A stretch of 41,881 nt of DNA. Source: a virus. Its lineage: Duplodnaviria > Caudoviricetes. Position numbers and translations under genes: made by a program. Position 1 is the stretch's first letter, and every line of letters starts with the position of its first letter. This document shows positions 10,354-13,488 of the stretch, one piece after another. The DNA lies in IMG/VR virus record IMGVR_UViG_3300031519_000061, positions 1 to 41,881 of that record; one strand, 5' to 3'. Below the pieces are notes generated by a model. The model saw only the letters and a program-made list of their open reading frames with translations. It was not told the DNA's origin and did not search any database.

Positions 10354-11526
10354 ATGTCAGAACTATTAGAAAGTCGCTGGCAGGACACCAAAACTGCACT
10401 TCTTGAAGGCCTTTCAGGCACAAAGAAAAGCGTAATGGCAAGTACACTGGAAAATACACGTAAGTATTTGTCAGAAACAGCCACAGCTGGCGCAACATCC
10501 GCAGGTAACGTAGCAACTCTTAACAGAGTGATTCTACCCGTTATCCGTCGTGTTATGCCTACAGTTATTGCTAACGAAATTGTTGGTGTTCAGCCTATGA
10601 CAGGACCAGTGGGTCAAATCCACACACTACGTGTACGTTATTCGGACACGGCAGGCACAGGCGCTTCAGGCGCTATTGCAGGTGAAGAAGCACTTTCACC
10701 ATTCAAGATTGCTGAAGCATATTCAGGTAACGCTACATCTGCAAAAGCAGATGCTACAGCTGCACTTGAAGGAGCGGTTGGTAACAGACTAAGCATCCAA
10801 ATCTTGAAGCAGACAGTAGAAGCAAAAACCAGAAAGCTATCAGCTCGCTGGACTTTTGAATCTGCACAAGACGCACAGTCAATGCACGGTATCGACGTAG
10901 AAGCAGAAATCATGGCAGCACTTGCTCAAGAGATTACTGCTGAAATCGACCAAGAGATCCTAGGATCACTTGCTACACTAGCAGGAACTGGTACAGATAC
11001 ATTTGACCAGGCTGCTGTTAGCGGTACTGCTACTTTTGTTGGTGACGAACATGCTGCTTTAGCTGTTCTAGTTAACAGAGCAGCAAATAGAATTGCACAG
11101 AGAACACGTAGAGGCGCAGGTAACTGGGCTGTTGTTTCTCCAGCAATCTTAACTGTACTACAGAGTGCAACTACTTCAGCGTTCGCAAGAACAACTGAAG
11201 GTGCTTTTGAAGCTCCAACAAACACTAAGTTTGTAGGCACATTAAATAACGCAATGAAAATTTACGTTAACACATATGCTGCAGACGACGATGTACTAGT
11301 TGGATACAAAGGCTCAAGCGAATCAGATGCAGCGGCATTTTATTGCCCATACATCCCGCTAATGAGCTCAGGCGTAGTGCTTGATCCAACATCATTCGAA
11401 CCAGTCGTATCATTTATGACACGTTACGGATATGTTGAATTATCAAACACAGCATCGTCTCTAGGCAACGCAGCTGACTACTTAGAAAAAGTAGAAGTAA
11501 CAGCGGCAAACCTAAGCTTCAGCTAA
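10354..11526 (+). CDS. gp23: Major capsid protein
   Basis: gp23 motifs GVQPMTGPVGQI, AKTRKLSARWTFE..QD...HGIDVEAE, FYCPYIPL, FMTRYG. Confidence 0.98.
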   Translation: MSELLESRWQDTKTALLEGLSGTKKSVMASTLENTRKYLSETATAGATSAGNVATLNRVILPVIRRVMPTVIANEIVGVQPMTGPVGQIHTLRVRYSDTAGTGASGAIAGEEALSPFKIAEAYSGNATSAKADATAALEGAVGNRLSIQILKQTVEAKTRKLSARWTFESAQDAQSMHGIDVEAEIMAALAQEITAEIDQEILGSLATLAGTGTDTFDQAAVSGTATFVGDEHAALAVLVNRAANRIAQRTRRGAGNWAVVSPAILTVLQSATTSAFARTTEGAFEAPTNTKFVGTLNNAMKIYVNTYAADDDVLVGYKGSSESDAAAFYCPYIPLMSSGVVLDPTSFEPVVSFMTRYGYVELSNTASSLGNAADYLEKVEVTAANLSFS

Positions 11527-11547: not shown

Positions 11548-11576
11548 AAAATAGGCGCTACGGCGCCTATTTTTTT
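11548..11576 (+). terminator. Intrinsic terminator of the head operon
   Basis: AAAATAGGCGC-TACG-GCGCCTATTTT, a perfect stem with a UNCG loop and a T-run. Confidence 0.93.
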
Positions 11577-11596
11577 GACTTTTTTTAATTAAATGG

Positions 11597-11625
11597 TTGA
11601 CAGACGTTCTTATTAGTGCTATTAT
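11597..11625 (+). promoter_or_regulatory. Sigma70-type (early) promoter
   Basis: TTGACA 11597-11602, 17-nt spacer, extended -10 TG-C-TATTAT 11617-11625, AT-rich UP-like tract upstream. Confidence 0.85.
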
Positions 11626-11630
11626 ATATA

Positions 11631-11882
11631 CATAGCTAGGAGATATCCTTTGCTATGATAGTGCAAGGAACAAGCAACTGCAACGTTGCGAACTTGGCTA
11701 ACACCTGTAGTGGGACTGTATGAGCGTAGAGATACGAAGATATGGATTTTGGACTTAACGGTTCGATGTTAGGCGCTCCGACTTATAAATGAGTTGATAA
11801 GGAGTTGTTGGTAATCATTAATCCCAACCTATCACCCATATTTAAACGAAAAGGTCTATTCTTAATTGAGTAGGCCTTTTTT
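11631..11882 (+). ncRNA. Unassigned structured ncRNA of about 250 nt
   Basis: Bounded by a sigma70 promoter and a terminator, no substantial ORF, at least seven hand-paired helices including a GAGA tetraloop and a GUUCGA T-loop-like hairpin. Confidence 0.75.
11849..11882 (+). terminator. Intrinsic terminator of the ncRNA
   Basis: AAAAGGTCTATTC-ttaatt-GAGTAGGCCTTTT followed by TT; its G-U pairs only work on the + strand. Confidence 0.8.
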
Positions 11883-11921
11883 ATTCACCGGGTCACCTAG
11901 TATGATCCTTTTCTCTTATTA

Positions 11922-11929
11922 GATAAATA
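11922..11929 (+). promoter_or_regulatory. Late promoter GATAAATA
   Basis: TAAATA core downstream of the terminator, about 96 nt upstream of ATG 12026. Confidence 0.7.
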
Positions 11930-11937
11930 CTTGTGTC

Positions 11938-12010
11938 AAATAGTGTGCCGCAAGGCGGACTTATGCTGTTACCCGCAGCGTACCGGATAGAACCCGGATA
12001 GGACTACTTT
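11938..12010 (+). promoter_or_regulatory. Structured 5' leader (four-way junction)
   Basis: TAGT 11941-44/ACTA 12003-06 closes GCC-gcaa-GGC, TATGCTG/CAGCGTA and CCGG-atagaac-CCGG; GC-rich island just before AGGAG. Confidence 0.65.
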
Positions 12011-12025
12011 AATAGGAGAAAAAAA

Positions 12026-12409
12026 ATGGGAAGACCAATTAATAAAAAGAACATCGGCCAAGGATCTAGCCGTATATCTGTAACAACTGTAAAGTTTGCT
12101 GCAGGTGGTGAGGTTCTTAATGCATGGATTGTTTCACAGAGATCAACTAACAAGTTTATTGTTAGTGATGGAACTAAAACAGAAACTTGTACGCTTGTAA
12201 ACAAGAATACTGGAGCATTAGCTGCTGGTGAATTTAACATTTACGCAGTGCTAGACGATTCTACTGTAGTACAAGTTACAAAACTTCGTAACAGAACTAT
12301 TCAGTATGAAGGCGGCACAGCTCAAGTACAGAACATTAAATATGTTCGAGGCCCTGGTGATGAAAACGCCGGTGTAGCTGGCGCAGCATCTATAGCTGTA
12401 CAAGACTAA
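12026..12409 (+). CDS. Small virion structural protein (possible head decoration or fibre base)
   Basis: 127 aa, beta-rich, MGRPINKK N-terminus, strong RBS, first late gene after the capsid. Confidence 0.65.
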   Translation: MGRPINKKNIGQGSSRISVTTVKFAAGGEVLNAWIVSQRSTNKFIVSDGTKTETCTLVNKNTGALAAGEFNIYAVLDDSTVVQVTKLRNRTIQYEGGTAQVQNIKYVRGPGDENAGVAGAASIAVQD

Positions 12410-12416
12410 GTGAAAA

Positions 12417-12440
12417 ATTGGGGGGAGAAATCCCCCTAAT
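12417..12440. terminator. Strong hairpin (attenuator/stabiliser on +, or terminator on -)
   Basis: ATTGGGGGGA-GAAA-TCCCCCTAAT; a T-run follows only on the minus strand. Confidence 0.55.
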
Positions 12441-12459
12441 ATATACATAGGATTTATAA

Positions 12460-13488
12460 ATGTCAAAAGTACTAAGCGTTAATAACGGAAATTACACAGT
12501 TAAAGTCGAAGGTGGTGGTCAAATACTCTTTGATACTTCAAGAGGCACTCTTGTCAGTGGAAAGCCTGCTGGAACTGTAGTAATACGAGGCAGTTTGGAA
12601 GTAGAAGGTACTACTACAACTGTTGAAAGTAATGATACTTTAATTAACGATAACATACTGACATTAAACAACGGTCAAACTGGTGCAGGAATTAGTGCAT
12701 CAAAGAATTATCAAGCAGGAATTGAAATTGATCGAGGATCCGAAGCAACAGCTAAATTTGTTTTTGATGATAGTGTTGCTTGGGATATAGGTGGAGACTC
12801 TGGTACTGGAGGATTTAAACTCTTTACAGGATCAGGCGCCAAAACTACACTTGTATTAGATGGAATTAAATCTAATGCCGCACTATATATAGACACTGGT
12901 AATAATGGCATTAGTGTAACAAATGCAACCGACTATGAAACAAACGTATTTCCATATACAGGAAGTGCAGTTACTGGCGGAGCCATTGATGATGACATGA
13001 TTCCTAATGCAAAAGCAGTTGTAGATTATGTTGCGTTTGCTAATGCATCATTATTACAAAATAGAATTGAAGAAGGTACCACAACTAAAACATTTGTACA
13101 ATCAAGAGACTTTGAAGTTACTGGAAATCCAAGTGAAGTTAGTATCGGTATTAATAATGAAACAAGGGCATCATTCTTTTTAGACACTATCCAATTAGGC
13201 GATATTGTATTACAAGGAAGCCAAATAAGTACAATAAACACTAACGAAGATTTAAGATTAGAAGCAGCAGGAACTGGTAGCGTTCAAATAAACGATAAAT
13301 TGCATCTTACATCAACAGCACATGCTAGTGATGCTGCAATTGACCCGTTAAAACCTACAACTGGATCTATATTGTATACAAAAACCGAAGATGCAGGTGG
13401 CACTGGGTTGTTCTTTGTAAATAGTAGCAACACACAGAACGAAATAATAAGCAACAATAGATCATTGCTGTATAGTATGATTTTTTAA
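12460..13488 (+). CDS. Fibre-like virion structural protein
   Basis: GSLEVEGTTTTVES..DNILTLN...AGIEIDRG fibre motif, N-x-D-L-x-L-x-x-x-GTG repeat shared with downstream fibres, C-terminal LLYSMIF. Confidence 0.75.
   Translation: MSKVLSVNNGNYTVKVEGGGQILFDTSRGTLVSGKPAGTVVIRGSLEVEGTTTTVESNDTLINDNILTLNNGQTGAGISASKNYQAGIEIDRGSEATAKFVFDDSVAWDIGGDSGTGGFKLFTGSGAKTTLVLDGIKSNAALYIDTGNNGISVTNATDYETNVFPYTGSAVTGGAIDDDMIPNAKAVVDYVAFANASLLQNRIEEGTTTKTFVQSRDFEVTGNPSEVSIGINNETRASFFLDTIQLGDIVLQGSQISTINTNEDLRLEAAGTGSVQINDKLHLTSTAHASDAAIDPLKPTTGSILYTKTEDAGGTGLFFVNSSNTQNEIISNNRSLLYSMIF

Follow-up and report, generated by a model that had tools for sequence, protein, structure and literature searches.

A divergent and optional RNA of the manA class, predicted to be a free-standing gene, next to the capsid gene in a marine jumbo phage

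The structured RNA downstream of the major capsid protein gene in the window (the whole 41.9-kb stretch of DNA that was analysed) is a real, conserved and divergent member of the manA family (Rfam RF01745) and not a new family. It is best explained as an optional manA-class gene from which the host polymerase would make a free RNA of approximately 210 nt. Copies of this RNA would pair through their loops into closed, pentamer-based particles, which would bind host proteins as a decoy or scaffold. A probability of roughly 0.4 is given to this reading as a whole.

The window covers a T4-like head and tail region in which the portal, the prohead protease and Gp23 are identified by Pfam. Among the matches listed, the closest cultured relatives of Gp23 are jumbo phages with 64–71% identity, for example Vibrio 2.275.O (70.6%), Sinorhizobium Phosso (69.9%) and Pseudomonas PA5oct/Paride (66.9%). 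The genome records of the listed Gp23 matches are 285–470 kb long (at least 25 records). Metagenome runs that contain the window stretch come from marine, brine and ice samples, and one run carries the label aquatic. The manA-bearing window is taken to be marine jumbo phage DNA. No tRNA or tmRNA gene is found by ARAGORN in the 41.9-kb window. The features of the capsid-proximal region are as follows.

10354–11526, + strand: gp23 major capsid protein gene, the upstream anchor (Pfam Gp23, E 9.5e-101)
11548–11581, + strand: intrinsic terminator of gp23, which insulates the manA cassette (terminator scan)
11589–11906, no strand assigned: span of the optional cassette (one contig with identical flanks lacks it)
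11597–11625, + strand: sigma70-type promoter, −35 box at 11597–11602 and extended −10 box at 11617–11625 (TTGACA-17-TG-TATTAT, 11/12)
11630–11838, + strand: manA-class RNA with nine helices (full Rfam RF01745 model and covariation)
11657–11661 with 11829–11833, + strand: closing helix P2 (97% paired, 10 two-sided cells)
11674–11689, + strand: P3b hairpin, with loop L3 at 11681–11684 complementary to 11793–11796 in L8 (loop-pair tests)
11698–11772, + strand: P4 multiloop domain (P4 92% paired)
11704–11714, + strand: P5 and loop L5 (P5 95% paired)
11716–11745, + strand: P6 with GAGA tetraloop (P6a 92% paired)
11749–11766, + strand: P7 and loop L7 (P7 90% paired)
11775–11805, + strand: P8 with loop L8, in which 11788–11792 (L9 partner) adjoins 11793–11796 (L3 partner)
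11807–11828, + strand: P9 hairpin, with loop L9 at 11815–11819 complementary to L8 (P9 100% paired)
approximately 11849–11882, + strand: hairpin of the intrinsic terminator of the RNA gene (folding and homologue terminator scan)
11923, + strand: late-promoter-like ATAAATA, approximately 20 nt 5' of freshwater-2 (motif list)
11944–12028, + strand: freshwater-2 RNA, leader of a conserved 127-aa ORF (Rfam RF02980, 73.5 bits, above cut-off)

In the Rfam E-value scan, positions 11633–11838 match the whole manA model (1–192 of 192) with 42.9 bits and E 9.7e-10. This score is below the RF01745 gathering cut-off of 55.2 bits, so the window copy is filed as a variant and not as a plain member. In the scan at gathering cut-offs, manA was missed and only freshwater-2 (11944–12028) was reported in the window. 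The family had not been recognised in the preliminary description of the unit; it is sub-threshold manA: the feature is real, and the family is not new. A full-length manA match is present in all 20 homologue loci of one set (three above the cut-off; best 79.9 bits) and a match in 11 of the 14 loci of a second set (one above), so that 4/34 scanned loci exceed the cut-off (L046, L013, L184 and L120).

Homologues were drawn from 80 gp23 loci and 119 motif loci. Iteration of a profile whose seed excluded the promoter yielded 94 matches, from which 55 distinct near-complete copies were taken and 54, including the window, were usable (L197, a cut sequence, was left out). The model built from the 54 copies matches 26 of the 80 gp23 loci. 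It also detects canonical manA in S-CREM1 (57.8 bits) and P-SSM4 (45.5 bits), and all seven further cultured phages score 39.9–88.4 bits (P-SSM2, P-HM1, S-SSM5, P-SSM7, P-RSM4, P-TIM68 and Mosig). The nine cultured records were chosen by hand, with seven taken from 37 blast hits and S-CREM1 and Mosig added. The window unit has no blastn match among cultured phages. The L046 copy has one weak match, to Mosig, which the 54-copy model confirms. Pelagibacter phage Mosig (MT647606; L209, positions 741–952) carries an unannotated manA of this subfamily's type at 88.4 bits. This copy has a promoter of its own and lies 23 nt 5' of a rubrerythrin gene. In P-SSM4, P-HM1 and S-SSM5 (L201, L204 and L205), GenBank "hypothetical proteins" overlie the manA RNA, and these ORFs are likely spurious. 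In prokaryote genome contigs, a pattern that matches 49 of the 54 known copies finds no stretch, and a looser pattern finds eight, none of which is a full-length manA (best 14.2 bits). These pattern searches therefore yield no host-encoded copy and no clue to the host.

The preliminary description had proposed a stand-alone, multi-domain phage RNA made by host-type polymerase, and the promoter, the terminator and the covarying fold support this. The capsid terminator that it placed upstream is found at 11548–11573 and is annotated as far as 11581, and its near-consensus sigma70 promoter scores 11/12, one of only three sites of at least 11/12 in the 41.9-kb window. At the 5' end of the manA copies, a promoter of at least 9/12 is present in all 54 homologues and one of at least 10/12 in 52/54, where the background rates are 10.5% and 2.2%. 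Transcription would start at approximately 11630–11632. The unit's own terminator hairpin, missing from the first window-wide terminator listing, is also found. The RNA had been put at approximately 250 nt; its structured part ends near 11838, which gives approximately 210 nt, and the remainder is terminator. Folding of the unit gives z = −3.84, and none of 200 shuffles is equally stable.

Among the homologues, 38/53 have a terminator that starts within 17 nt after manA, compared to 16 of 400 random sites (4%). No terminator occurs within the scanned range of the other 15/53 copies, which counts against a stand-alone reading. In three further copies (of 54), tRNA-Gly lies directly 3' of manA. 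In the cultured phages, 8/9 manA copies have their own promoter; the same scan finds a terminator at 1/9, and two more are seen by eye. The S-CREM1 copy is flush between tRNA-Leu and tRNA-Asn, and the P-TIM68 copy faces a gene on the opposite strand. In P-SSM2 and Mosig, an ORF follows manA by approximately 16–23 nt, which also counts against a stand-alone reading. Taken together, the promoter in 54/54 and the terminator in 38/53 copies argue against the "cis-regulatory" label of manA. In cyanophages L203–L208, the −35 box of the manA promoter is inside the upstream terminator hairpin and the two form a compact terminator-promoter module.

The fold was assessed on a plain MAFFT alignment of the 54 distinct copies with 62 named pairs. 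In the nine-helix manA fold, 90.1% of cells are paired and 48 of the 62 pairs have two-sided changes. None of 500 shuffles reaches the observed level and slid controls reach 32–43%; these controls overstate significance, because the structure was drawn from one aligned sequence and the sequences are related. RNAalifold independently recovers 40 pairs, 30 of them with two-sided change. The manA fold thus covaries among homologues. Four of the helices first paired by hand hold over the 54 homologues: AGGA/TCCT (94% paired), GCAAC/GTTGC (83%), CGTA/TACG with its GAGA loop (98%) and GTTGG/CCAAC (100%). Two do not: ATAGT/ACTGT is 61% paired with one two-sided change, and CTTAAC/GTTAGG, the T-loop hairpin, is 52% paired with three. 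CGACTTA/TGAGTTG (50%) and the outer CATAGC/GCTATG (39%) are doubtful as drawn, and both are in variable regions where alignment register is a caveat. The long-range helix AGATATGG/CCATATTT is abandoned: P6 (92% paired) takes up its 5' strand, and L024, L030 and L180, although near-identical, differ in its 3' strand. The hand-drawn structure lacked P2, P4, P5, P7 and the loop-loop pairings.

A tRNA mimic, also suggested earlier, is rejected. ARAGORN finds no gene, the proposed T-loop hairpin is 52% paired, and there is no cloverleaf or T-arm; the idea falls because it rests on a helix without covariation. Nothing in the analysis supports the suggested ribozyme, and the Rfam E-value scan contains no ribozyme family match.

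In the region-pair test (25 representatives below 90% identity), L8–L9 (z 6.2) and L3–L8 (z 4.8) are the top two of 76 region pairs, with the L3 partner being the adjoining 3' part of L8. A full four-base L8–L9 match is present in 45/54 cognate combinations, compared to 23% of non-cognate ones. For L3–L8, counting Watson–Crick pairs only, the four-base match is present in 49/54 cognate and 27% of non-cognate combinations. Both complementary pairs are present in the window copy. There are seven fully paired L8–L9 codes. On a tree that leaves out the loop columns, several of them have more than one origin, and the code changes even between near-identical RNAs (L141 and L007). Recombination could explain some of the repeated origins. 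Nine of the 54 copies have no full L8–L9 match. Three of these (L009, L135 and L154) form a clade in which the L8–L9 match is lost and a 5-bp L3–L8 match is kept, a natural test of the need for each contact. The L5–L7 pair, picked by RNAalifold, is 94% paired with one two-sided column. Its cognate rate (42/54, or 78%) equals its non-cognate rate (78%), and its central pair is an A.G mismatch in the window copy.

These loops correspond to contacts described in a 2026 cryo-EM preprint (bioRxiv 10.64898/2026.07.01.735769), with loop numbers matched to it by helix counting. In the portions of the preprint available, all five manA RNAs form closed 8-, 10- or 60-mers built from pentamers. One set of oligomers is joined by L5–L7' and L8–L9', and another by L5–L7', L3–L8' and the GNRA loop L6. 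The cages were made in vitro at approximately 3 mg/mL, which counts against assembly in cells, and purified in 2 mM Mg2+ buffer. In these portions, manA is still labelled cis-regulatory. The L8–L9 and L3–L8 pairs of the subfamily appear to be kept under selection and to match the named cage contacts.

The strand that pairs with L3 also forms the tip of P8 in 37/45 copies (z 4.1 vs 6.2), a count that leaves out the nine copies without a full L8–L9 match and includes approximately six rows in the wrong register. This double use suggests alternative pairings, and a strand exchange at P8 between monomer and assembly is plausible. Several points count against assembly: the minimum-energy fold of the window RNA buries both L8 segments, L5–L7 gains nothing from cognate pairing and is mismatched in the window copy, nine copies have no full L8–L9 match, and covariation is blind to whether a pair is intermolecular or intramolecular.

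In the preferred reading, the host polymerase would transcribe the cassette early as a free RNA of approximately 210 nt. Copies would pair loop to loop (L8–L9, L3–L8 and L5–L7) into pentamer-based closed particles, and each particle would serve as a many-armed decoy or scaffold for host proteins during infection, with a conditional benefit. The RNA's own promoter, terminator and conserved sticky loops make a free self-assembling particle likely, and not a gene switch. Assembly of the window manA into closed oligomers is probable. The decoy or scaffold role, given a trans-acting RNA, is tentative and somewhat short of an even chance; the analysis identified neither a binding partner of manA nor a link to defence.

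The best-surviving alternative, although rather unlikely, is a free, compact, monomeric RNA. In it, each loop pair would be a pseudoknot within one molecule, and the pseudoknots would shape either a catalytic site or a core that binds a ligand or protein. The cages in vitro would result from domain swapping at high concentration. Invariant junction bases suggest such a tertiary core, cis and trans pairing are not separable by covariation, and related manAs differ in which contacts join their subunits, as far as the available text of 10.64898/2026.07.01.735769 describes them. The same text reports defined closed oligomers with a common pentamer for five of five RNAs, purified in 2 mM Mg2+, which goes against a monomer, as does the lack of a ribozyme family match in Rfam.

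Of six RNA runs, four (two studies) have contigs over the manA RNA. In X15, a contig spans 11647–11837 at a depth of 350, compared to 13 for the contig on the next gene. The corresponding depths are 559 and 12 in X16, 122 and 2–4 in X18, and 9.5 and 2 in X17. In DNA runs, they are 193 and 58 (X2) and 143 and 37 (X6). The DNA contigs in X2 and X6 bridge the promoter (11576–11837), and the listed RNA contigs stop at 11646–11660. In X19 and X20 no contig covers the RNA, and this lack of cover is not evidence. Runs with a small or zero word share were left out, and gp23 depth, which is mixed with that of other phages, was not used for gene ranking. Contig depth is a strandless and poor measure of expression, and these libraries give a weak hint of a discrete manA transcript.

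The X16 and X18 contigs continue into a tRNA-Gly allele and not into the window's terminator. The allele is the arrangement found in the three copies with tRNA-Gly directly 3', and with the S-CREM1 copy it favours a tRNA-linked accessory RNA that is co-transcribed with phage tRNAs, freed by tRNA processing, and cages or protects them. The same proposal was made for GOLLD and ROOL, according to the accessible part of 10.1101/2024.12.08.627333. Any tRNA is present in only 4 of 48 scanned loci and none in the 41.9-kb window, which makes this role improbable for manA.

The cassette is optional. A contig in X19 (depth 3.1) joins 11588 to 11907 with six letters between and no flank differences, and the empty 188-nt post-gp23 spacer of L005 equals the window spacer minus the cassette. 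manA is present in 21/54 gp23 loci with at least 700 nt downstream (absent in 33/54) and in 16/30 complete post-gp23 spacers (absent in 14/30). It follows gp23 in 38/45 motif-found loci, many of which are near-copies, and is elsewhere in 7/45; of the 80 motif loci among the matches listed, 35 are chance matches. In the cultured phages, it follows gp23 in 3/9 (P-HM1, S-SSM5 and P-RSM4) and is elsewhere in 6/9. In relatives, glutamine-riboswitch units and small genes of unrelated kinds also occupy the spacer. Such tolerance of insertions at this site accounts for some of the gp23 linkage; it does not fully explain the adjacency in P-HM1, S-SSM5 and P-RSM4.

Glutamine-riboswitch units (RF01739) above the cut-off lie between gp23 and manA in L046 (4233–4280), L144, L171, L177 and L192, and the L046 unit carries a small ORF. 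Swappable small genes are found in the spacer of L034 (after 3694), L003, L009, L011, L012 and L045. By eye, one of the post-gp23 genes is presumably IscU-scaffold-like and several are presumably cold-shock-type-like.

The linkage bears on a role in head assembly like that of the phi29 pRNA, in which a pentamer would dock on the five-fold vertices or the prohead portal. The position after gp23 in most motif-found loci and in distant cyanophages is in favour, as is the pentamer as the manA building block (10.64898/2026.07.01.735769, available portions). Against it are the many gp23 loci and full spacers without manA, the contig with identical flanks that lacks it, the unrelated cassettes in the same spacer, the copies elsewhere in 6/9 cultured phages and 7/45 loci, and a sigma70-type promoter in place of a late-like motif. 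Such a role is clearly improbable.

Downstream, the ATAAATA at 11923 is presumably a late promoter, by its likeness to that of T4. Freshwater-2 is present in 24/80 gp23 loci (nhmmer E<1), and its unit is present also at manA-empty sites; it looks like a late 5' leader that is independent of manA. ORFs 12026–12409 and 12460–13488 match no Pfam family and, at best, a PHROG without a name. Another sigma70-type promoter of 11/12 (12421–12466, − strand) is antisense into the 127-aa ORF and has a terminator-like hairpin approximately 2 nt after its −10 box. Just 3' of manA, non-terminator sequences occur in L147/L186, L002/L161/L135, L128, L164/L125 and L111. Several are common to copies and hairpin-like by eye, those scanned have no Rfam match, and they are candidates for further RNAs.

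Weinberg et al. 2010 (PMC2864571), in the part accessible, rate manA as cis-regulatory and probably a riboswitch, and PMC9964418 and PMC12197685 carry the same label in the parts available. A cis-acting leader or riboswitch of the next gene, as in Rfam, would agree with the ORFs close behind manA in P-SSM2 and Mosig and with the copies that lack a near terminator. Against it, the terminator is not part of the conserved fold and no antiterminator is seen to be conserved; terminator stems and downstream neighbours vary; the downstream gene carries a promoter-like motif and a leader of its own and is retained at empty sites; and the S-CREM1 and P-TIM68 contexts are incompatible with a leader. This reading is very improbable. 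A small peptide, already the weaker alternative in the preliminary description, is hardly credible: the ATG at 11720 is present in 35/54 copies and lies in helix P6, the ATG at 11655 is present in only 4/54, the longest ORFs differ in start and length and are not common to the copies, and indels are of any length.

Extra covarying pairs in manA are reported in the available parts of PMC7657543 and PMC7779021, and these may include the loop pairs found here. The term "manA" is absent from the accessible main text of PMC9004378. In the literature covered, mostly outside subscription papers, no description of manA as a stand-alone transcript or as gp23-linked was found. Listings from 2010 onwards treat manA as probably a riboswitch, with no ligand, and the window subfamily offers a genomic argument for a free RNA gene. 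The loop-pair covariation is evolutionary evidence for selected pairs that match named cage contacts. This evidence casts the family in a new light and opens the cage question to testing. Cultured test systems are Mosig, whose manA (88.4 bits) is close to this subfamily, and P-SSM4, P-HM1 and S-SSM5, which have canonical manA; the natural loop-code variants are ready reagents for separating cis from trans pairing. A broader and quite unlikely proposal is that, in infected cells, the capsid-gene-linked manA of large tailed phages assembles into a cage made of RNA alone and based on pentamers. Its fast-changing loop codes would restrict assembly mainly to self within each strain, strand exchange at P8 would act as a gate, and the cage would hold cargo (tRNA or host defence proteins) or dock on the five-fold head vertices.

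Among known systems, the phi29 pRNA is likewise a small phage RNA that, in the accounts available, forms a ring by loop-loop pairing. The pRNA is essential and portal-bound. In contrast, the window RNA is optional and resembles the pRNA neither in sequence nor in Rfam. ROOL and GOLLD are, in the accessible part of 10.1101/2024.12.08.627333, phage-encoded, optional and often tRNA-linked RNA-only cages of unknown function, and are thus a precedent for the window manA. They are 650–800+ nt long and dihedral, whereas the window manA is approximately 210 nt and its family pentamer-based. They are unrelated to it in sequence and fold, and no ROOL or GOLLD match is present in the window in Rfam up to E 10. 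The window subfamily resembles RF01745 in its whole-model match, helix order and closing helix, in the GAYR-type L1, L5 and P9/L9 motifs common to both, and in reciprocal matches to cyanophage and pelagiphage copies. It differs in its carriers, which are jumbo phages with capsids of the PA5oct/GAP32-like lineage and not cyanophages, in a longer P6 with an internal loop, and in mostly ending in a terminator, hence not as a 5' leader. Of the cage-forming manAs in the preprint text available, manA_A0F1 (a 60-mer) has an L8–L9' contact with a counterpart here and an L5–L7' contact with a putative one, and manA_pho34 (a decamer) has L3–L8' and GNRA L6 contacts with counterparts here. Unlike either, the window subfamily encodes both L8–L9 and L3–L8, either of which may be intermolecular.
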